A stretch of DNA of 64,000 nt from Flavobacterium sp. UBA5153 (GCF_002413745.1 NZ_DHXP01000073.1), one strand, 5' to 3'. Counted from the first letter of the stretch, positions 27,329 to 37,027 are shown. Numbers and translations: made by a program. Notes: generated by a model not told the origin, from the letters alone.

Positions 27329-29494
27329 TTACTTTTTAACCGCTTCAACTAATTCCAAAACATCCAAACTCACTTTTGAAGTGAATATTCCGTAATTTAC
27401 GGTTGCCTTATTTTTCTCAATGTTATCAATACTTCCCACGGCTTTTCCGTCAATCATTCGTACTCGATCTCCCACTTTCAAAATAGCTTTTGGTTTTTCG
27501 ATAACGGGTTTGAGTTTCTTTTCCTTTTTGGCAACCCTAATTTCTTCAACCTTAACCTCAATCTCTTTAATAACTTCCTTTTTCTTTTCGACAATTGCCT
27601 TAATTTCTTTGGGAGTTGCTTTTTTGCGTTTTGAATTTTCGATTTCGATAATCTTCAAAAACTCGCCAATAAGATCTTTCTTGTTTTTATTATTGAAATA
27701 TTTCTCGGCAATATCTTCAATTTTTTGTCCAATGTAAATCGTTTTCTGGTTACTGTCATACAATTCTTGGTAGCTTTCCAGTTTTTGCTTGATTTTCACG
27801 TTGATAGTTTCCATTTTTTTGCCTTCCTCACGCGCTTTTGTTTCTTCTTCTTTCAGCGTTTGCGATGTTTTTTCCATCTTCGAACGCTCTTTTTGCAAGG
27901 TGGCGATGGTTTTGTCAAAACGCACTTTTCCCACTTCAATTTTCTTTTTCGCCCGATTGATTAAACTAAACGGAATTCCATTTTTCAGTGCCACTTCAAA
28001 TGTGAAAGAACTTCCTGCTTGGCCTAAAACCAATTTATACATTGGTTCCAAGGTTTTTTCGTCAAACAACATATTAGCATTTATGGCAAAAGGCAATTCG
28101 TTGGCAAGAATTTTCAGGTTCGAATAATGGGTCGTAATTATGCCGAAAGCTTCCCGATGATAGAACTCTTCCAAGAAAATTTCTGCCAAAGCACCACCCA
28201 ATTCCGGATCAGAACCGGTACCAAATTCATCAATCAGGAACATCGTTTTCTTGTTGCATTTCTTCAAGAAGTAGTTCATATTCTTGAGTCGGTAACTGTA
28301 GGTACTCAGATGGTTTTCAATAGATTGGTTATCTCCAATATCCGTTAATATTCTATCAAACAAAAAGGTTTCGCTGCGTTCGTGAACGGGAATTAACATT
28401 CCGGATTGCAGCATTAATTGGAGCAATCCCACAGTTTTTAGTGAGATTGTTTTTCCTCCTGCATTGGGTCCTGAAATCACGATGATTCTTTTTTCCTGAT
28501 TTAACTCAATAGTTTGAGGATGCGTAACCTCGTTCTTCTGTTTGTTATTCAAATACAAAATGGGGTGGAAGGCATCCCGAAAATACAACCTTCTATTTTC
28601 AGTAATTGCCGGTAAAATCCCGTTGATTCTGTTGGCGTATTTGGCTTTGGCTGCAATCACGTCAATATCGCTCAAGAATTCCTGATATTGAATAAGCAAC
28701 GGTAAAAAAGGACGAATCTGGTTGGATAATTGTTTCAGAATTCGGGTGATTTCTTCTTTTTCCTCATATTCTAAATTACTCAATTCACGCGAATATTTCA
28801 AGGTAGTTTCGGGTTCAATATAAGCGATACTTCCCGTTTTGGAACTGCCCAAAATAGAACCTTTGACTTTGCGACGATACATAGCCGAAACCGCCAAAAC
28901 TCTACGATTTTGAACAAAACTTTCTTTAATGTCGTCTAAATAGCCAAGTGCATTATATTGCGTTAATGCCACTCCAAAACTCTGGTTGACTTTGCCACGA
29001 ACGAGATTCATTTCTCGACGAATATTTGATAATTCGGGAGAAGCATTGTCTTTTATTTCCCCATATTTATCGACCACAACATCTACAAGGCTGCTTATTT
29101 CCTTGGTTAATTGCACTTCGGAAGCTTTTACATTTAGATTGGGATAATAATCATCGAATTTTTTGAAATAATTCAGCAGGAAATTCGTGGTTTCTGATAT
29201 GGTGGCAATTTTTCTAAAACTTCCCACTTCAAGAAAACTGTCTTCTATAGCCAAGAACTTGATTTCGTAGGTAATGGCATCAAATCCGTGATTGGGAATA
29301 GCATTATTATTTTGGAAAGAGGAAACATATTCGGTGGTTTGCATCAAAGCCTTCATCAAGGTTTCTTTCTCGTTGAAAGGCGTGATTTCCAAGGCTTTTT
29401 GCTTACCAATATCGGTATTGCAAATTGCCGAAATGGTTTCGAGAACGGTTGGAAATTGTAAATCTTGAAGTGTTTTTTCTGTAATGGAGATCAT
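27329..29494 (-). CDS. mutS2: MutS2 family protein (no obvious Smr domain; KOW-like C-terminus)
   Basis: GPNAGGKT Walker A, DEFGTGSDP, a long Lys/Glu-rich linker, and C-terminal VGDRVRM...GKAVG. Confidence 0.85.
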   Translation of the reverse strand: MISITEKTLQDLQFPTVLETISAICNTDIGKQKALEITPFNEKETLMKALMQTTEYVSSFQNNNAIPNHGFDAITYEIKFLAIEDSFLEVGSFRKIATISETTNFLLNYFKKFDDYYPNLNVKASEVQLTKEISSLVDVVVDKYGEIKDNASPELSNIRREMNLVRGKVNQSFGVALTQYNALGYLDDIKESFVQNRRVLAVSAMYRRKVKGSILGSSKTGSIAYIEPETTLKYSRELSNLEYEEKEEITRILKQLSNQIRPFLPLLIQYQEFLSDIDVIAAKAKYANRINGILPAITENRRLYFRDAFHPILYLNNKQKNEVTHPQTIELNQEKRIIVISGPNAGGKTISLKTVGLLQLMLQSGMLIPVHERSETFLFDRILTDIGDNQSIENHLSTYSYRLKNMNYFLKKCNKKTMFLIDEFGTGSDPELGGALAEIFLEEFYHREAFGIITTHYSNLKILANELPFAINANMLFDEKTLEPMYKLVLGQAGSSFTFEVALKNGIPFSLINRAKKKIEVGKVRFDKTIATLQKERSKMEKTSQTLKEEETKAREEGKKMETINVKIKQKLESYQELYDSNQKTIYIGQKIEDIAEKYFNNKNKKDLIGEFLKIIEIENSKRKKATPKEIKAIVEKKKEVIKEIEVKVEEIRVAKKEKKLKPVIEKPKAILKVGDRVRMIDGKAVGSIDNIEKNKATVNYGIFTSKVSLDVLELVEAVKK

Positions 29495-29576
29495 TTAAAT
29501 AGGTAGAAATTTTATACAAAGTTACAAACTTGTTAAGTTGTATTAATCTAAAACAATTAATTTTTATATTTGTTAA

Positions 29577-29867
29577 ATGAAAAAGGATGAAATAATCGAT
29601 ACTTTACAAACGGAAAAGCAATTCCTTAAAGATAATTACGGTGTTATTACCATTGCTTTGTTTGGTTCTTATGCAAAAGGAATGGAAAATCCGGATAGCG
29701 ATGTTGATTTCATTGTCGAATTCAAAGAGCCATCTTATAGCTTGTTGATGGGTTTGTATTCCTATTTAGAAAATAAATTAAATTCCAAAATTGAAATTGT
29801 TAGAAAAGGACCTCATTTATCGGAGCGATTTCTTAATAACATCAAAAACGACTTGATTTATGTATGA
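29577..29867 (+). CDS. mntA: MNT-type nucleotidyltransferase antitoxin
   Basis: LFGSYAKG...DSDVDF minimal nucleotidyltransferase motifs. Overlaps the next gene by 8 bp. Confidence 0.8.
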   Translation: MKKDEIIDTLQTEKQFLKDNYGVITIALFGSYAKGMENPDSDVDFIVEFKEPSYSLLMGLYSYLENKLNSKIEIVRKGPHLSERFLNNIKNDLIYV

Positions 29868-30222
29868 TGCTGTTTATAAATATTCGCTGGAAACTATTTT
29901 AGATCATATCAACATTTGTAATAAAAGATTTTCTGAAATTCATAATCCTATTGATTTTACTTCAACCGATTATGGGAAAACGCTACTCGACTCCATTGTT
30001 ACTAGGCTTCAAGCCATCGGTGAAAACTTAAAAAACACTTCAAGAAAAAACAATTTATTGCAGACCAATTATCCGGAAATTGAGTGGAACAAAATCATTC
30101 GATTTCGGGATTTTATTTCTCATCATTATGAAATGTTGGATTATGAGATTGTTTTTGAAATATGTGAGGATTATTTACCAAAATTAGAATTGGTCATAAA
30201 AGAAGAATTAGCTAAATTTTAA
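29860..30222 (+). CDS. hepT: HEPN (DUF86) toxin
   Basis: RFRDFISHHY contains the Rx4-6H HEPN motif. 120 aa. Confidence 0.8.
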   Translation: MYDAVYKYSLETILDHINICNKRFSEIHNPIDFTSTDYGKTLLDSIVTRLQAIGENLKNTSRKNNLLQTNYPEIEWNKIIRFRDFISHHYEMLDYEIVFEICEDYLPKLELVIKEELAKF

Positions 30223-30227
30223 TAAGG

Positions 30228-30252
30228 ATGCAACCCAAACTCAATCCTTCTT
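30228..30252 (+). repeat. 25-bp perfect copy of the ung start (ATGCAACCCAAACTCAATCCTTCTT)
   Basis: Identical to 34783-34807. Homology ends after CCTTCTT. Confidence 0.9.
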
Positions 30253-30506
30253 TTAGCCGATATGCGCTGTTTTTTACCCAATACGCAACGTATTTTCAGT
30301 CTTTCAGCACCCTAAAATTAAAAGTCCTTTCGCTGATTCGTAATAATTTATCTATATATTTGATAAAAAATAATGTATGTAGGATTATCATACAAAGCCG
30401 CCCAAATAAGGGAGGATTGGAATGATTTTATCAGATTAATCTACGAGTTACCTGATATTTTCGAGCAACAGAAACAGAAACAAAAACTAAAACAAAAATT
30501 AAAATT

Positions 30507-31046
30507 ATGAAAAACAAATTATTACTTACAATTGCAATTCTTTTATGCGCAATTTCTTATTCTCAAGATTTTCCTAAACTAAAATTAACACCAAATGGTG
30601 TTGAACCAATAATTGTAAATACAGATAGTTTAAAAGCAACAGATTTATATGAAAAAGCATTGAATTGGGTACAAGAAACTTATAAAAACCCTGAAAAAGT
30701 TCTTAAAGCAAAAATAGAAAACGAAAAAATTAGAATAGATGCTTTTGCTGAAAATGCTTGGTGGTATAAATCACTTGGAATGAAACAGAATTATAATATG
30801 GCATATTCTGTAGAAATTTCATTCAAAGATGGTAAATACAAGTTTGAGTATATAATTGGACAATTTTTTATTGAAGGCGGACAAAAAGTATTGTATGATT
30901 ACAAAACATTTTATAAAAAAACAGGAGAAGTAAGGAGTGCTTATACTGACGCTGTTCCGAGTTTAGAAGAAACAATGAATAATTTATCATTGAATTTTTA
31001 TAATTATTTGACTGGAAAAACAACAAAAAAAGATGATAAATGGTAA
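30507..31046 (+). CDS. Hypothetical lipoprotein (possibly DUF4468-like)
   Basis: Signal peptide MKNKLLLTIAILLCAISYSQ. 179 aa. The family name is from memory only. Confidence 0.6.
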   Translation: MKNKLLLTIAILLCAISYSQDFPKLKLTPNGVEPIIVNTDSLKATDLYEKALNWVQETYKNPEKVLKAKIENEKIRIDAFAENAWWYKSLGMKQNYNMAYSVEISFKDGKYKFEYIIGQFFIEGGQKVLYDYKTFYKKTGEVRSAYTDAVPSLEETMNNLSLNFYNYLTGKTTKKDDKW

Positions 31047-31055
31047 AATAGTCAA

Positions 31056-31697
31056 ATGAAAAATTTAGAAATTTATAAAGAATTTTATTTTAGAGAAATC
31101 GACCGTAAAAATGAATTAAACAACATCATAAATATACCGATTTTAATTATTACAGGGATTATTTCAGTTCAGTTTTATTTTTACAGCCAACAAATTGAAA
31201 ATTCTTTAAAAATATATTTGGAAGTTTTATCTATAATTTGTGCGTTAAGTATTCTTTATTCAATATTTTATCTTTTGAAATCATTTGGTAATTTTTTCAA
31301 AAATCATAGTTATAAAGAATTGAATGAAATGAACTCAATTTATAAGTATGAAAGGGAATTAATAAAGGAACAAACAAAAATTGCGGACGCTGAAAGTTTC
31401 TTTTTAGAATACTTAAACGAACAGTTTTCTGATTGTGCAAGTCATAATTTTTTAATCAACAAAACAAGAACTGAAGACATAGCAAAATCAAAAAAAGGAA
31501 TTTTTATAAGTATAATTTGCACAATTTTATTTTCAATAATATTTTTAATTTCAATTATTACTATGGCAAAAAAAACTGAAAATACCAAACCAATAGTTAA
31601 ACCAGTTACAACTATTCAACAACCACAAAGTGTTTTAATAAAAAATAGTAAACAGACAAAAGAAACACCTAAAACAAACATAAAGAGAAGTAATTAA
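31056..31697 (+). CDS. Hypothetical membrane protein (3 predicted TM helices)
   Basis: 213 aa, starting 9 bp after the previous stop. Hydrophobic helices at about residues 25-45, 55-75 and 150-170. Confidence 0.55.
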   Translation: MKNLEIYKEFYFREIDRKNELNNIINIPILIITGIISVQFYFYSQQIENSLKIYLEVLSIICALSILYSIFYLLKSFGNFFKNHSYKELNEMNSIYKYERELIKEQTKIADAESFFLEYLNEQFSDCASHNFLINKTRTEDIAKSKKGIFISIICTILFSIIFLISIITMAKKTENTKPIVKPVTTIQQPQSVLIKNSKQTKETPKTNIKRSN

Positions 31698-31754
31698 AAA
31701 CATCAGGTAATCGAGTAGACGGCTCCGCCAGAAACTGACGGAGTGCGCCTCTCA

Positions 31755-31790
31755 CACCACCGAACGTACGGGTCACGTATTCGGCGGTTC
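31755..31790 (-). ncRNA. Group II intron domain V
   Basis: About 34-nt hairpin ACCGCCGAA/UUCGGUGGU with upper stem UACG/CGUA. The CGC triad is typical of IIC introns. Confidence 0.75.
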
Positions 31791-33068
31791 GCAAAGTGAT
31801 GGGTTGAGTTCGATGTAAACATCGGTTAATGATTGATAGCCTCGCTGTTTCAAGCGTTTCAAAGTAATGGTGGTATTCAAAATTGGACTCTGTGCAATTG
31901 CCCAACCGCCTTTCCTCGTCCTGCTCCAAGCATAGGCGTGGTCTTGGTCAACGCCTAATCGAATCAGGTTTTTCCTTTTTCGTTCGGGTTTCTTCCAGTC
32001 GTGCCAAATGCAATAGCGCAGGCGATTTCGTAGCCAGCCGTCTAAATCACGTAATTTGCCCATAATGCTCGTTCCCCGAAAATAGTTTAACCATCCTCGT
32101 TGCACTTCTTTTATCTTGGCAATCCGTTCTTCTAGCTTGACTGGTGCGGTTTTTCGGCTGATGCTTTTGAGCCGTTCTTTGAGTTTCTTCCACGCCTTTT
32201 CTGCCACTACCAACTGGTATTGGTTTTTGCTCCCTTTTTGATACGTTGGCACAAACCCAAATCCCAACAAAGTGAAGTTTACAGGACGTCTAATCCCGCT
32301 TTTCTCGGTGTTGATGGTGAGTTGGAGCTTCGTTTTCAAGAATTTTGCAATTACCTGTGCTGTGGCTTTCGCCTGATTTTGGCTTTTGCAGTAGATGCTA
32401 AAATCATCGGCATAGCGAACGAATTTCAGTTTCCGCCTTGTCATTTCTTTGTCCAACTCATTGAGTAGAATATTAGACAATAACGGACTCAATGGGCTTC
32501 CTTGCGGAACGCCTTTTGTTCGTTTTTGTAATTTTCCGTTGATTCGTATCGGCACTCGCAACCAGTTTCGTATCAAGCGCATTGTGGTTTGGCATTTCAC
32601 TTTTCGATAGACTAAATTCAGCAATAAACAATGATCTACTTCGTCAAAGAAGTTCTTGAGGTCGATGTCCACGATGTGGTTCAGTCCCTGATGGATGTAT
32701 TCCCTCGATTGCCCAACGGCTTGTCGGGCGTTTTTGTTGGGTCTAAATCCAAAACTATTGCTACTGAATTCGGGTTCAAATAGTGGTGCAATTACTTGTG
32801 ATACGGCTTGTTGCAACACTCGGTCGGTGGTGGTGGGAACGCCCAAAAGTCGGGTTTTGCCGTTGCCTTTGGGAATCTCTACGCCTAAAATGGCTTGTGG
32901 CAAGTAGTTGCCTTGTCTGATGGCTTCGAGCAATTGTGCTTTCTTTTGGGGGAATAACATCTTGAGTTGAGTGGTTTTTATACCATCGACTCCTGCGCTT
33001 CCTTTGTTGGAAATCACTTGCTCTACTGCTTTTTGCAGATTGTAAGGATGTACTACTCTCTCAATCAT
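31773..33068 (-). CDS. Group II intron reverse transcriptase/maturase (no endonuclease domain)
   Basis: RT motifs including VRYADDF (YADD). Maturase X region. 431 aa. Confidence 0.9.
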   Translation of the reverse strand: MIERVVHPYNLQKAVEQVISNKGSAGVDGIKTTQLKMLFPQKKAQLLEAIRQGNYLPQAILGVEIPKGNGKTRLLGVPTTTDRVLQQAVSQVIAPLFEPEFSSNSFGFRPNKNARQAVGQSREYIHQGLNHIVDIDLKNFFDEVDHCLLLNLVYRKVKCQTTMRLIRNWLRVPIRINGKLQKRTKGVPQGSPLSPLLSNILLNELDKEMTRRKLKFVRYADDFSIYCKSQNQAKATAQVIAKFLKTKLQLTINTEKSGIRRPVNFTLLGFGFVPTYQKGSKNQYQLVVAEKAWKKLKERLKSISRKTAPVKLEERIAKIKEVQRGWLNYFRGTSIMGKLRDLDGWLRNRLRYCIWHDWKKPERKRKNLIRLGVDQDHAYAWSRTRKGGWAIAQSPILNTTITLKRLKQRGYQSLTDVYIELNPSLCEPPNT

Positions 33069-33613
33069 TTTGTTGTTTTAATCGGTTAACCTGTTCTTGT
33101 TTTTCAGAGCTATAACTTGCGCCATTCCGTTGAAAATTAAGAACCATTTTGCGTTCGGTCCTTCCTTGTTTGTGAGTCCTATGCGGTATCTATTCGCAAC
33201 TCGTTGCCCCAAGTACTATGACTTCTGCTGACTTCTTTGCCTAACCAACTCGTGGTTGCAAAGACCTCCCCTGGTAAGAACTTTTTCCTTCATCCAATCA
33301 CTGGAGCATCTACATCTAAAAGGTTTGGTAATCTTCGGACGTTACGTTGCTGTGGACGCTTATCCCCTTTTAAATGCCTCGTATGCACTTTCTGTTCGTC
33401 AGTACCGGATTTTGTCGTTTCGCTTCCTTCAGTTCTGGCTTCACAGCCAACAACCTTGCGACGTACTAGTGGTTCGGGTTTTCAATCCGCCCACAAGGGA
33501 CTTGCACCCTCTGGAAAAATAACACGCTGTAAGATTTGTTTTCTAATCCAAAATTTGTAATTTCGGATTTTTATCAAAGCCTACAGCGTGTGTCCTGCTC
33601 ATGCAGGGCACAC

Positions 33614-33734
33614 ACAGCCGTTTTGAGCTAGTGTGTGATTTAGTGGAATTAGCGTTTCGCATTATGTTTTCTGCAAAGCCGAAAATTGAAAGGTTACGAA
33701 ATCCCCACCATCTCAAAGCAGCGGAACGTTAGGC
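33614..33734 (+). repeat. attC-like junction element 1 (right part; the left 10-14 nt are at 31701-31714, split by the intron)
   Basis: Read across the intron: AGGTAAT (R''-like), 6-nt spacer, GCCGTTTTGAG (33617-33627) pairing with CTCAAAGCAGC (33712-33722), 5-nt spacer, GTTAGGC (33728-33734, matching GTTRRRY). About 131 nt without the intron. Confidence 0.45.
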
Positions 33735-33777
33735 ACAATGTTGCCAAAAAAAAACAATTAACTTAAAATAAAAATAA

Positions 33778-34275
33778 ATGGGATTTTTCACATCAAAACC
33801 GAAAAAAAAAGCACTTCAAATTTTAGAAATTGAAATAACAGATAGTCTTTTATCAAAATTAGTTGAAACGCAAAAACTGAATGGTTTTACAGACTATTCA
33901 ATTGAAATTTCAGAAAAATTTAAACTATTTGATATTGCAATTTTCAGAAGTTTTGAAAACACAAAAGAACTTACAAACGAAACTTCATTCAATTTAATTC
34001 TCGAAAACAAAAATCAATCAATAACTATAAATAAAGTTAAAGAATTAGTGAATTCTTTTTCAGCTGAATATGGAAATGACAGAAATGGAAAATCAAAATG
34101 GACGAATGAAGATGATAAAGCAATCTCAACTTATTGGGAAGGGCGTGAATGGATTTTAGATAGTAAAAGAAAATCTCAAAAGGTTTTTGAAAAAGATTGC
34201 TGTCAAATTAATTTTCATTTTAACCTAGATGACGGAGTAGATTTTTCAATTTTAGGAGCAAATAGTCAAATTTAA
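33778..34275 (+). CDS. Hypothetical cytoplasmic protein (cassette-like ORF)
   Basis: 165-aa ORF flanked by the inverted 15-mers GTTAGGCACAATGTT (33728-33742) and AACACTGTGCCTAAC (34295-34309). Confidence 0.55.
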   Translation: MGFFTSKPKKKALQILEIEITDSLLSKLVETQKLNGFTDYSIEISEKFKLFDIAIFRSFENTKELTNETSFNLILENKNQSITINKVKELVNSFSAEYGNDRNGKSKWTNEDDKAISTYWEGREWILDSKRKSQKVFEKDCCQINFHFNLDDGVDFSILGANSQI

Positions 34276-34302
34276 AAAAATTAACATCGAAAGAAACACT
34301 GT

Positions 34303-34360
34303 GCCTAACAGCTAGAGTTTCGTTGCGTGCGCAGTACGAACAATGAAACTCGTGTTGAAC
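34303..34360 (+). repeat. attC-like junction element 2 (58 bp)
   Basis: GCCTAAC (matches RYYYAAC), spacer AGCTA, stem GAGTTTCGTTG / CAATGAAACTC, spacer GT, GTTGAAC (matches GTTRRRY). The right spacer is shorter than canonical. Confidence 0.4.
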
Positions 34361-34495
34361 GGAACCAAAGTACCTGCCGTTAACACTATGGAGTTATCAT
34401 AAAGTTTTTAGAGAGAATGCAAATAGTCCAATAGCCGTCAGGATTGTCCGCTTCGCTTAATGCTAAAGTGTAAACATTAACCATTGCATTTTGCG

Positions 34496-34651
34496 AAAAC
34501 TTCACGAACTTTACTGCAAATTAAATTGTATGCAACTCAAACTCAATCCTTCTTGGCAAACTATTTTAGATGACGAAATCCAGAAACCTTATTTCCAGGA
34601 TTTGATGAAGGCTGTCGATGAAGAATACAAAAATCATACTTGTTTTCCCCC
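34496..34651 (+). pseudogene. Truncated, diverged copy of the ung upstream region plus the first ~41 codons
   Basis: Aligns to 34748-34904 with roughly a dozen mismatches by eye (MQLKLNPSWQTILDDEIQKPYFQDLMKAVDEEYKNHTCFPP versus the intact gene). Homology stops after CFPP. Confidence 0.85.
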
Positions 34652-34750
34652 TGCTGGCGCAAGCATTAGGTAACACAGACGCTAGTGCGAGTTTCCAAAC
34701 TCGTACCCTAAATAGTGGGCACAAGCGTGACGCTTGCGACAGCGGAGGAA
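34652..34750 (+). repeat. Junction element 3 (related to elements 1 and 2)
   Basis: CATTAGGTAACACAGACGCTAGTGCGAGTTT parallels CATCAGGTAATCGA|ACAGCC..GCTAGTGTGTGATTT of element 1. Its end, ACAGCGGAG, parallels GCAGCGGAAC of element 1. It has hairpins CGAGTTT/AAACTCG and CAAGCG/CGCTTG. Confidence 0.35.
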
Positions 34751-34782
34751 AACTTTGCGAACTTTACGGCAAATTAAATTAT

Positions 34783-35463
34783 ATGCAACCCAAACTCAAT
34801 CCTTCTTGGCAAACTATTTTATCAGATGAAATCCAGAAACCTTATTTTAAGGACTTGATGAAAGCTGTCGATGAAGAATACAAGAATCACACTTGTTTTC
34901 CTCCAAAGGAATTGATTTTCGCCGCTTTCGATCATTGTTCGTTTGACCATTTGAAAGTGGTCATTATTGGACAAGATCCGTACCACGGGATTCATGAAGC
35001 GAATGGTTTGTGTTTTTCGGTAAACGATGCTGTCAAGATTCCACCTTCGTTGCGCAATATTTTTAGGGAATTGAATGATGATTTGGGAACTGTTTTCCTG
35101 CCTACTTCCGGCAACTTGGAACATTGGGCAAAACAAGGCGTTTTACTTTTGAATGCTTCTCTTTCGGTTCGAATGGACAATCCAAACAGTCATAAACATT
35201 TGAAATGGGCAACTTTTACCGATGCTGTTATCCAGAAAATTTCGGATGAAAAAGAAAATATAGTGTTTTTGCTTTGGGGAAGTTTTGCCAAGAAAAAAGG
35301 TTCCAAAATTGACAGAAATAAACATCTGGTTTTAGAATGCGGACATCCTTCGCCTATGAGCGCCAATCAAGGAAAATGGTTTGGGAACAAACATTTTAGC
35401 CAGACGAATGAGTATTTGAAATCGAAAGGAAAAACCGGAATCGATTGGTCAATTATAAATTAA
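34783..35463 (+). CDS. ung: Uracil-DNA glycosylase
   Basis: GQDPYHG and HPSPMSA motifs. Start at ATG 34783 (MQPKLNPSWQTIL). The upstream extension in the ORF track reads through junction DNA. Confidence 0.9.
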   Translation: MQPKLNPSWQTILSDEIQKPYFKDLMKAVDEEYKNHTCFPPKELIFAAFDHCSFDHLKVVIIGQDPYHGIHEANGLCFSVNDAVKIPPSLRNIFRELNDDLGTVFLPTSGNLEHWAKQGVLLLNASLSVRMDNPNSHKHLKWATFTDAVIQKISDEKENIVFLLWGSFAKKKGSKIDRNKHLVLECGHPSPMSANQGKWFGNKHFSQTNEYLKSKGKTGIDWSIIN

Positions 35464-35509
35464 AAAAATCCCTTAAACATTTAAATTATGGATAAAGGAT
35501 TAATAAAAA

Positions 35510-37027
35510 TTATGAAGCGATTTCTACCGATTTTTTTTGTTTCATGCTTCCCGTTTTTGATAATCGGGTGTAAAAAGTAAAGGCTTCTTCCAAAAGATGA
35601 GGAGTTTGCCCGCCACGTAAACAGGCACGATCATAATAATCGATGAGTTCCTCTTTATATTCCGGATGGGCACAATTTTCGATGATTACTTTTACGCGTT
35701 CTCTTGGCGCAAGGCCTCTCAAATCGGCCAAACCTTGTTCCGTCACCAAAATATCGACATCATGTTCGGTATGGTCCACATGGGGAACCATTGGCACAAC
35801 ATGCGATATGGAATTGAATTCCTTGGAAGCGGACTGCGTAACAAAAATGCTCAAATAACTGTTTCTGGCAAAATCCCCAGAACCCCCGATGCCGTTCATC
35901 ATTTTGGTGCCTGAAATATGCGTTGAATTTACATTGCCATAAATGTCAAATTCAATTGCGGTATTAATTGATATAACTCCTAATCTCCGGATTACTTCCG
36001 CTGAATTGCTGATATTTTGCGGACGAAGAACCATCTTGTCTTTATATTGATCGAAATTGTCTAAAACGTGTTTGTAACAGGCTTCTGAAACTGTAATTGA
36101 CGATGCCGAAGCAAAATCCATTTTTCCGGAATCAAATAATTCAAAGGTACTGTCTTGTAATACTTCCGAATACATGACCAAATTTTCAAAATTTCCTCTG
36201 GAAAATCCTGACATCACCGCATTAGCCACTTTTCCGATGCCAACCTGTAATGGCATTAATGATTTTGTCAATCTGCTAACTTCAATTTCATTTTCAAAAA
36301 ACGCTAACAAATGATTTGCGATTGCTGTAGTTTTTGCATCTGGCTCGCTTACCAAAGCAGCACTGTCGGGAAGTTCTGTAAACACAATTCCGGCAACTTT
36401 GTCAGGATCAATAGTGATATAATCGACTCCGATTCTGTCTTCGGAAGATTTAATGTTGATGACATCCCGATTTGGATATTTTTCATGAATAAAAATATCA
36501 TGTATACCTTTGAAATTTAATGGTATAGAAGTATTTATTTCAATGATAATATTATCTGCTAAATGTGCAAAAGTAGCCGAGTTTCCCACAGAAGTTGTTG
36601 GGATAATATTCCCATTTTCATCAATATAGGTGGCTTCAAGAATGGCAAAATCGAGTTTTGGAAGATGCTTGTTTTCTAATAATTCGGCAGTTTCACTGAG
36701 GTGTTGGTCTATAAAAAGCACGTCACCTTCGTTAATTTTTTGTCTGAGCGAACTATCAGCCTGAAAAGGCATTCTTCGGTATAAGGCATTGTTTTTCGCC
36801 AAATCGGCATCGGTATTGTGTCCTAAAGAAGCGCCGGTAATCAGCGTAATGGCGATATTTTCGAATTCTGCTTTTTTCGCAAAAGCAGGAAGTACGGCTT
36901 TGCTGTCCCCTGCTTTTGTAAATCCGCTTGTGCCAACTACCATTTTATCTTTTAAAAAATTGGCGGCTTGTTGCGCAGAAATTACTTTGTCTTTGTAACT
37001 TTGAAATCGAATTCGCTCTAAGTTCAT
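35510..37027 (-). CDS. Acetyl-CoA hydrolase/transferase family protein (succinate/acetate CoA-transferase-like)
   Basis: 505 aa. Typical N-terminus (VVGTSGFTKAGDSKAV) and GIGGSGDF motif. Confidence 0.85.
   Translation of the reverse strand: MNLERIRFQSYKDKVISAQQAANFLKDKMVVGTSGFTKAGDSKAVLPAFAKKAEFENIAITLITGASLGHNTDADLAKNNALYRRMPFQADSSLRQKINEGDVLFIDQHLSETAELLENKHLPKLDFAILEATYIDENGNIIPTTSVGNSATFAHLADNIIIEINTSIPLNFKGIHDIFIHEKYPNRDVINIKSSEDRIGVDYITIDPDKVAGIVFTELPDSAALVSEPDAKTTAIANHLLAFFENEIEVSRLTKSLMPLQVGIGKVANAVMSGFSRGNFENLVMYSEVLQDSTFELFDSGKMDFASASSITVSEACYKHVLDNFDQYKDKMVLRPQNISNSAEVIRRLGVISINTAIEFDIYGNVNSTHISGTKMMNGIGGSGDFARNSYLSIFVTQSASKEFNSISHVVPMVPHVDHTEHDVDILVTEQGLADLRGLAPRERVKVIIENCAHPEYKEELIDYYDRACLRGGQTPHLLEEAFTFYTRLSKTGSMKQKKSVEIAS

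Follow-up and report, generated by a model that had tools for sequence, protein, structure and literature searches.

Are the repeated hairpin elements that separate the genes upstream of ung in Flavobacterium sp. UBA5153 (GCF_002413745.1, NZ_DHXP01000073.1) the recombination sites of gene cassettes and, if so, to what kind of system do they belong? The interval in question (4.5 kb; positions 30253-34782 of the 64,000-nt stretch of DNA analyzed here, hereafter the window) lies between a MNT/HepT toxin-antitoxin pair on its left and ung on its right, and a preliminary description had read it as an integron-like array with no integrase in the window, resembling clusters in which attC sites occur without an integron-integrase (CALIN). 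Our analysis indicates, with a probability that we put at roughly 0.8 for both the cassettes and their recombination, that 30448-34354 is a two-cassette array belonging to a system of site-specific recombination that resembles integrons and occurs widely in Flavobacterium and elsewhere in the Bacteroidota. The features on which the argument draws are the following.

30253-30447, plus strand: truncated gene-less promoter module, homologous from about 30321 onward to inter-cassette modules elsewhere
30448-33728, plus strand: cassette 1, with a DUF4468 lipoprotein gene, a membrane protein gene and a long-type site
30507-31046, plus strand: DUF4468 lipoprotein gene
31056-31697, plus strand: gene for a 213-amino-acid (aa) membrane protein with a weak 8xMP match
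31699-31709, plus strand: left part of the long-type attC-like site (element 1), comprising the R'' distal arm AACATCAGGTA and the first A of AAC
31710-33613, minus strand: group IIC intron, with a reverse transcriptase (RT)/maturase open reading frame (ORF) at 31773-33068
33614-33734, plus strand: right part of the long-type site, comprising AC-A, a stem of about 20 bp (GCCGTTTTGAGCTAGTGTG.../...CCACCATCTCAAAGCAGC), the spacer GGAAC and R' GTTAGGC
33729-34354, plus strand: cassette 2, which opens TTAGGCACAATGTT, holds orf165 and ends in a short-type site
33778-34275, plus strand: orf165 (165 aa), with no Pfam or PADLOC family
34295-34360, plus strand: short-type attC-like site (element 2), comprising the R'' arm AACACTGTGCCTAAC, A-GCTAGAGTTTCGTTG, a GC hairpin, CAATGAAACTCGT and R' GTTGAAC

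The two ends of each cassette are related by a simple rule. In both cassettes of the window, reverse-complementing the 12 nt that follow the upstream GTT yields the 12 nt in front of the AAC in the cassette's own 3' site, save for a single mismatch at position 11. Cassette 1 opens TTACCTGATATT, which is complementary to its own R'' box AACATCAGGTAAC with one mismatch in 12 (the full 5' arm is GTTACCTGATATT, 30447-59). The arms of cassette 2, GTTAGGCACAATGTT (33728-42) and AACACTGTGCCTAAC (34295-309), are the inverted 15-nt pair already noticed in the preliminary description around the ORF at 33778-34275; both the ORF and the pair are present, the latter complementary at 14 of 15 positions. The rule was examined on all 35 long- and short-type sites with at least 1.5 kb of upstream sequence. 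Fourteen sites matched their own upstream region with one mismatch in 12 and four more with two (18/35 with at most two), as against 5 of 1155 trials with two mismatches, and never one or fewer, for the arms of foreign sites (about 0.4%); the sites' own downstream regions always gave at least three mismatches (no site with two or fewer). In 18/18 the mismatch falls at position 11 from the G of GTT, with A in the 5' arm and C in the 3' arm, so that the coding strand has A.C at this place and its complement a T.G wobble; several poorer sites show nine paired bases and a 2/3-nt irregularity at the same place, after which pairing resumes. A G|TT+N12 start that is complementary to the N12+AAC at the head of the cassette's own 3' hairpin site is the signature of a circularisable cassette. 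Folded as single-stranded DNA in their circle-joined form, the two window sites reach -19.6 and -24.9 kcal/mol (z -4.4 each), and the same two sites in array context give z values of -0.45 and -0.98. The arms are unique to each cassette and yet self-complementary, which argues for recognition of structure rather than sequence.

Changes of context among relatives of cassette 2 point in the same direction. There are 22 orf165 homologues, all seemingly cassette genes, which occupy at least six other array contexts, with identity breaking exactly at AC|GTT. An 87%-identical orf165 cassette (L106-L109) has the same ends, AC|GTTAGGCACAATGTTACCC... and ...ACACTGTGCCTAAC-A, and is found with three different cassettes upstream of it and two downstream; pairwise identity between these copies is 100% from GTT on and 40-69% in the preceding 60 nt, and at the other end they diverge within four bases of the next GTT. 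A 53%-identical homologue on Chitinophagaceae-type contigs (L102-L105) occurs in three contexts that break likewise at AC|GTT, with sites of a third family (about 135 nt) that keeps the position-11 mismatch. The end rule and the context changes at AC|GTT together mark the cassettes as discrete mobile units that recombine at or next to G|TT, and related sequences break exactly at AC|GTT of the junction elements, as the preliminary description had anticipated for true cassette boundaries. The ends GTTAGGCACAATGTT and ACACTGTGCCTAAC enclose a short-type body in the window (33728-34360) and a long-type body in L106-L109 (L106, 927-1870); the hairpin body between the R boxes seems to be exchangeable.

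The sites themselves fall into families with a shared architecture. The long type (about 130 nt) was defined from an alignment of nine sites targeted by the intron, a further copy without it and element 1, and consists of an invariant AAC, one base, a stem of about 20 bp, an interior of about 70 nt in which the motif CCGAAAAT is conserved, five bases of which the last two are AC, and GTT. Fifteen of the 20 stem pairs show compensatory changes, 88% of the stem cells are paired as against 33-39% with the partner slid, and the observed score was reached in 0/500 shuffles. With the intron removed, element 1 reads ...AACATCAGGTAAC-A-(~20-bp stem)...-GGAAC-GTTAGGC, with a putative crossover G|TT at 33728|33729; the 6-nt spacer and 11-bp stem assigned to it originally give way to a 1-nt left spacer and a stem of about 20 bp. 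Its R''-type box in this intron-free form, AGGTAACA, equals that of element 3 (CATTAGGTAACA) and is close to that of element 2 (GCCTAACA). A covariance model built from nine related sites and element 1 itself scores element 1 at 97 bits (E 1.7e-17), its sole match in the window, and matches further copies in the arrays of L005, L007, L022, L078 and L082-L088. The short type (about 60 nt) follows the pattern (variable)YAAC-A-GCTAGAGTTTCGTTG-(GC hairpin)-CAATGAAACTCNT-GTTGAACGGAACC. The same core recurs 19 times in six sources, after many genes in F. acetivorans and F. faecale arrays, and occurs once in the 64 kb of the window, in element 2 (0.01 expected; putative crossover G|TT at 34354|34355). 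Since the long-type and short-type cores are each present once, the junction elements are not dispersed repeats within the window. The three outcomes that the preliminary description had named as refuting its reading thus leave it standing, the elements being members of structured families with breaks at AC|GTT. Other parts of the preliminary description stood as well, namely the 58-bp element 2 (34303-34360), the GCTAG motif in all three elements, and the exact fit of element 2 R'' GCCTAAC and element 1 R' GTTAGGC to the consensus RYYYAAC/GTTRRRY; element 1 R'' AGGTAAC fits this consensus at 5/7 positions, and AAC and GTT are invariant or nearly so across sites.

In one array (L082, 2394-4646), a long-type site adjoins the gene for a 330-aa Xer/IntI-like recombinase that overlaps an IS91-family Y2 transposase gene, an arrangement that may represent another mobile element that uses these sites or is directed to them.

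The group IIC intron in element 1 offers an independent view of the hairpins. Its borders were set by aligning nine copies from other Flavobacterium genomes and by the Rfam D5/D6 match, which moved the left end from the 31715 first proposed (31715-33613) to 31710 and gives the ends 5' GTGTGCCC... and 3' ...CTACTCGAT. Rfam matches domains D1-D4 and D5/D6, and with a threshold of E up to 1 reports nothing but the intron in 29000-36000. The 431-aa intron protein contains RVT_1 and GIIM only, without an endonuclease domain, and its best PDB relatives are the GsI-IIC RT (E 6.5e-100) and the E. rectale IIC maturase; a IIC-type protein, an endonuclease-free RT/maturase and the ribozyme domains are all present. 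The insertion point is TGT|T on the bottom strand, between the two A of R'' AAC and antisense to the cassettes, and in 9/9 intron sites examined TGT|T lies directly after the hairpin with the intron antisense to the cassettes. IIC-attC introns are known to target TTGT/T at R'' (PMC7923331; see also PMC3001079), and the agreement of all nine insertions with this published rule is independent evidence that the hairpins exist as folded bottom strands. The resemblance extends to the endonuclease-free IIC intron, the bottom strand, the R'' (T)TGT/T following a stem-loop, the antisense orientation and the position between gene and site (PMC3001079, PMC7923331); it is a likeness of target and protein type, and the Flavobacterium host sites differ in not being canonical attC. 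In the window, a IIC intron that homes to the bottom strand of such hairpins has split the cassette 1 site. It places 1.9 kb between the R'' arm and the remainder of this site, and should probably block excision and immobilise the cassette.

Complete platforms elsewhere provide a candidate enzyme. Two intron-bearing sites occur in an F. faecale array (L085/86) that is headed by a co-oriented gene for a 350-aa tyrosine recombinase beside guaA, a member of a family sharing 62-81% identity in Flavobacterium, Pseudopedobacter, Arachidicoccus and Cyclobacteriaceae. Three further loci, in F. cellulosilyticum (L090), Arachidicoccus (L091) and metagenome contigs (L092/93), have housekeeping genes upstream of the recombinase and co-oriented accessory genes downstream. 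A conserved attI-like motif, AGTTGCGTATAYTTRAGA|GTT, lies between the recombinase and the first cassette, and the order recombinase, attI-like motif, co-oriented cassettes holds in 4/4 platforms examined (L085, L090, L091, L092/93), which span two classes. L090 carries four consecutive cassettes, each with a long-type site and each obeying the end rule. On balance we favor the 350-aa recombinase as the catalyst, with some reserve.

Each cassette comprises TT + N12 ... gene(s) ... N12' + AAC - hairpin body - AC - G. In the excised circle the ends would join, and pairing of the unique N12/N12' arms would create an R box of 14-15 bp whose position 11 is always non-Watson-Crick (A.C on the top strand, T.G on the bottom strand) and which would stack on the hairpin body to form a structured attC-like site. 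Under the mechanism that we propose, the 350-aa Xer/IntI-related recombinase, presumably encoded elsewhere in the genome, would read this structure rather than the sequence and exchange strands at or next to G|TT, and circles would insert at the attI-like AGTTGCGTATAYTTRAGA|GTT beside the recombinase gene or at other sites. The predicted circular cassette junction is ...AATGAAACTCGTG|TTAGGCACAATG..., that of cassette 2 is ...CAATGAAACTCGTG|TTAGGCACAATGTTGCC..., and a cassette-loss allele would read ...GCAGCGGAACG|TTGAACGGAACC....

A number of observations weigh against the cassette array and the recombination that we propose for it. The 64-kb window contains no relative of the recombinase (tblastn best E 0.77), and none lies within 10 kb of ung in 80 related loci; with no recombinase nearby, the window array is CALIN-like. 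The 100%-identical copies of orf165 all belong to the same locus, on contigs of one strain population, and give no sign of recent movement, while a single metagenome scan for array variants with another cassette after element 1 returned two unrelated long-type sites only. Cassette circles are so far a prediction from sequence. The 7-mer consensus RYYYAAC/GTTRRRY is met by some sites only, boxes such as GTTGGCA, GTTAGCA and GGCTAAC... misfitting at positions 4-7. Compared with integrons, the R box here measures 14-15 bp and carries the position-11 mismatch instead of measuring 7 bp, and compared with attC the spacers are asymmetric (1 nt and 5 nt) with no extrahelical-base pattern identified. 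Neither element 3 nor the left end of the island is a site-specific junction, and the module that follows short-type sites breaks the end rule and could be a gene-less cassette or part of a site.

Could the genes have been shuffled in some other way, through homologous recombination between the repeated hairpin bodies, say, or as transposing units that end in inverted repeats, the recombinase being incidental? Long repeats such as the hairpin bodies, which are 60-90% alike, might allow homologous exchange; in L106-L109 the same R boxes enclose a long-type body instead of the short-type one of the window; and the outer junctions of the island are clearly not site-specific. The breakpoints, however, fall beyond the repeated bodies, at AC|GTT. 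Homologous recombination does not generate 12-nt arms that are unique to a cassette, self-complementary and mismatched at a fixed position, nor could a sequence-specific transposase read them, and the recombinase with its attI-like motif heads 4/4 platforms of two classes. We consider this explanation improbable.

Highly improbable, in our view, is a canonical integron remnant, that is, a CALIN with true attC sites and an IntI encoded elsewhere. Much of what is described above would suit it: the AAC...GTT boxes with exact GCCTAAC or GTTAGGC at two sites, hairpin sites of 58-130 nt, the circular-permutation signature and an intron placed like IIC-attC introns. The recombinase, too, has the 'integron integrase' family TIGR02249 among its best NCBIfam matches and VchIntIA as its best PDB match. 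It is nearest to XerA and the integron integrases but under every curated cut-off, scoring 199.6 against a cut-off of 265 for TIGR02249 and 133.5 against 435 for PRK15417. Its alignment with VchIntIA (2a3v) is in two pieces that skip approximately residues 214-247, the IntI-defining insertion, whereas XerA and XerC-like proteins align end to end and gap-free. Against a canonical remnant also stand the co-orientation of recombinase and cassettes, a site geometry unlike that of attC, with most R boxes misfitting RYYYAAC/GTTRRRY, and IntegronFinder surveys in which integrons are nearly absent from Bacteroidetes (PMC9024848). Those surveys suggest that standard integron models miss the present sites. 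Since the recombinase of complete arrays lacks the IntI insertion, the array does not qualify as an integron or CALIN in the strict sense. The preliminary description was right about cassettes and attC-like sites, less so about their class, and the alternative that it raised, an uncharacterised system like the recombinase-associated arrays of Bacteroidales, is a better label than integron.

That these are ordinary intergenic hairpins (terminators or repetitive extragenic palindrome-like sequences), with coincidentally inverted 15-mers and a IIC intron drawn to any stem-loop, is hardly credible: IIC introns do also target terminators (PMC7923331), the sites come after stop codons, and element 3 and a 125-nt palindrome (L004/L017/L012/L021) behave as plain hairpin repeats, but one arm of each pair is found 0.6-3.3 kb from the other, upstream of the gene, where it can be no part of a terminator, the end rule holds for 18/35 sites and for about 0.4% of controls, a given cassette recurs in several contexts with breakpoints that are exact, and a terminator scan was empty at the sites, with no T-tract after the hairpins.

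The cassette system that we favor over these alternatives shares with integrons promoterless genes, each with an imperfect hairpin site bounded by ...AAC and GTT..., a crossover at or near G|TT by which the start of the linear cassette completes its own site in the circle, an attI-like site and promoter beside a tyrosine recombinase, arrays rich in toxin-antitoxin and defense genes, and integrase-free satellite arrays; lineage-specific site families are a feature of sedentary chromosomal integrons. It differs from them in its recombinase, which lacks the IntI insertion and is co-oriented with the cassettes. The pdif modules of Acinetobacter plasmids are small units with accessory or toxin-antitoxin genes mobilised by XerC/D, but at conserved 28-bp duplex sites rather than cassette-specific hairpins.

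By analogy of layout, the closest described system would be recombinase-associated acquired interbacterial defense 1 (rAID-1) of Bacteroidales, in which a 5' XerD-like recombinase precedes co-oriented low-GC genes with intergenic repeats that have been called integron-reminiscent, and which is defined by a recombinase with at least 44% identity to B. fragilis BF9343_RS08045 together with genes for orphan immunity proteins against interbacterial toxins (bioRxiv 10.1101/471110; PMC12247911). Both systems belong to the same phylum and have repeated intergenic motifs of this kind; the window cassettes are co-oriented, of 22-27% GC and separated by site families, and L085 and L090-93 have the same layout. 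The cited rAID-1 papers, in contrast, describe neither a hairpin structure nor a crossover point nor a cassette signature, a recombinase is absent from the window array, and related Flavobacterium arrays hold mostly defense, toxin-antitoxin and uncharacterised genes. The 120 best relatives of the Flavobacterium recombinase come from Flavobacterium, Pseudopedobacter, Arachidicoccus and Cyclobacteriaceae, and none is named Bacteroides. The system appears to be undescribed: a literature search found the sites, their end rule and the association with the intron nowhere described for Flavobacteria, although it left many journals uncovered and is weak evidence of novelty. Tentatively, and at slightly less than even odds for the whole of the statement, it may be a Bacteroidota-wide counterpart of integrons with a Xer-like recombinase, an attI-like AGTTGCGTATAYTTRAGA|GTT, lineage-specific hairpin sites with cassette-specific R boxes in the circular form, promoter modules and a dedicated IIC intron lineage. 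It would stand to integrons either as a sister system or as a separate reinvention, and might be what underlies rAID arrays mechanistically.

How the cassettes would be expressed is suggested by the gene-less modules. Elsewhere, the conserved non-coding module after short-type sites runs from CTATGGAGTTATCGTAAAGTTTTGAGAGAGAATG through a terminator, a promoter (TTTG/TAnnTTTG) and a small hairpin to an end in ...TATATACAA|GTT or ...CAGACTGAC|GTT; window 34355-34485 is the 5' part of one such module and approximately 30321-30447 the 3' part of another. In L081, L083 and L085 (e.g. L083 15780-16119), modules associated with short-type sites start with TTGAACGGAACC and end in ATACAAC-GGAGGTTTTTTCACAGACTGAC|GTT (a mini-element of about 32 nt) or TATATACAA|GTT. 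The module at 30253-30447 has a Bacteroidetes-type -7 box, TATATTTG, at 30355-62 and a right end in ..CTACGA-G, a crossover-type box, and its promoter would drive cassette 1; its left end cuts a terminator, leaving GATATGCGCTGTTTTTT without the 5' arm. The array, placed originally at 30253 and said to be without obvious promoters, has its first cassette beginning at G|TT 30447|30448, and the remark about promoters applies to cassette 2 only. Chromosomal integrons of Vibrio contain gene-less, promoter-bearing cassettes that supply promoters to downstream genes within the array; the Flavobacterium module differs in breaking the cassette end rule, and may serve as an internal promoter or landing pad.

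As to gene content, coding sequence is present at 30507-31697 but as two ORFs (30507-31046 and 31056-31697) rather than the one first reported. Pfam and PADLOC assign the cassette proteins no function beyond DUF4468. The AlphaFold (AF2) model of orf165 is a confident alpha/beta fold (predicted local distance difference test, pLDDT, 87) with no PDB relative (best E 0.49). Related arrays encode Abi, TIR, GmrSD, AAA_15, restriction-modification, PIN and ParE proteins and many uncharacterised ones, and by analogy orf165 and its neighbors are likely to have an accessory role in defense or stress. A metagenome contig of the same strain population (L095) is missing 101 nt at 526-537 (window 31061-31161, the start of the 213-aa gene) and is otherwise 100% identical to the window.

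The remaining features concern the locus in which the array lies and the manner of its arrival.

27329-29494, minus strand: mutS2
29577-30222: MNT/HepT toxin-antitoxin pair
30228-30252, plus strand: ung stub 1, the first 25 nt of ung, identical to 34783-34807 and directly after the HepT stop codon
34355-34485, plus strand: 5' part of a module, TTGAACGGAACC...CTATGGAGTTATCATAAAGTTTTTAGAGAGAATG..., fused to the ung upstream region, as in L011
34486-34651, plus strand: ung stub 2, about 45 nt of upstream region and ung nt 1-122, with the ATG at 34530
34652-34747, plus strand: element 3, a degenerate short-type site (CATTAGGTAACA..GCTAGTGCGAGTTTCCAAACTCGT) inside a 12-bp hairpin (GCTGGCGCAAGC/GCTTGCGACAGC)
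34748-34782 and 34783-35463, plus strand: ung upstream region and intact ung gene, the conserved anchor to the right of the array

The usual arrangement in 80 related genomes has mutS2 and ung as divergent neighbors about 110 bp apart, with the toxin-antitoxin pair between them in about a dozen (12/80). The cassette genes of the window were found at 0/80 related ung loci, which makes the interval a lineage-specific insertion, and cassette DNA and genes have 22-27% GC versus 33-39% in the flanks. Wherever the MNT/HepT pair is present (window and 12/80 loci), 5-8 nt separate its end from an ung start codon; MNT has a match in PADLOC, the candidate family PDC-S09 (E 5e-28). As a cassette the pair was rejected because its ends lack complementarity, and AGTTACAAAG beside mutS2 is conserved in all genomes and reads as a mutS2 promoter box on the opposite strand. 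A MutS domain V protein (425 aa) forms a cassette with an intron-bearing site in one F. acetivorans array (L083 11451-12728); that mutS2 adjoins the window array may be coincidence.

The preliminary description took element 3, with the ung fragment that it correctly recognised, for a third cassette. Element 3 is instead a degenerate remnant without the R' GTT, with a likewise degenerate short-type homologue at L011 9798-9857, and the fragment (34495-34651) shares 90% identity with 34748-34904; the 25 nt at 30228-30252, overlooked at first, copy the ung 5' end a third time. In at least four lineages, ung 5' stubs of 6, 8, 25 and 122 nt lie to the left of inserted DNA, which is followed by a diverged second upstream region and start. 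In L004 (9797-9935) and L017 (9795-9935), ATGCAACC is followed by a 125-nt palindrome and then by a diverged second copy of the upstream region; in L025 (8780-8790), ATGCAA precedes the toxin-antitoxin pair; and in L011 and L012 a cassette and hairpin abut the ung upstream region. The palindrome (about 125 nt with 26-bp terminal arms, GCTCCGCAAAGTCTCCGACTTTGAGG...; L004 9803-9927, L017 9805-9935, L012 621-748, L021 3781-3904) lies just upstream of ung in three cases, one of them after a leucine-rich repeat protein gene, and downstream of it in one, and has no match to the long-type model.

Because the left junction cuts the module inside a terminator, it is not site-specific. The stubs across lineages suggest repeated one-sided homologous recombination anchored in ung, by which the array probably also reached its present position, to judge from the arrangement of the copies. 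In such replacements the incoming DNA would have joined by homology within conserved ung and by illegitimate recombination at its other end, leaving a resident ung stub each time, and homology-facilitated illegitimate recombination would be the simplest account of the stubs. We rejected three other origins: tandem duplication of ung (element 3 is unlike ung nt 123-218 and the copies are merely 90% alike), insertion into ung of a circularly permuted circle of module, cassette 1 and cassette 2 (the two module halves do not join), and insertion by the recombinase at a secondary ung site (at the left junction a terminator hairpin is cut and no G precedes TT).

Structure-specific recombination of folded attC is held to be tied to the extra domain of IntI. 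If our reading is true, a system of Flavobacteriia and Chitinophagia that works with a plain Xer-type enzyme would question the need for the IntI insertion in hairpin recombination, and would bear on whether cassette platforms arose more than once. It would also imply that IIC introns track such sites outside integrons, and would supply sequence rules for cassette annotation (G|TT+N12 / N12+AAC, the position-11 mismatch and the attI motif) and a testable mechanism for the rAID arrays of gut Bacteroidales. For Flavobacterium itself, it would explain the source of many of its small defense, toxin-antitoxin and orphan genes.

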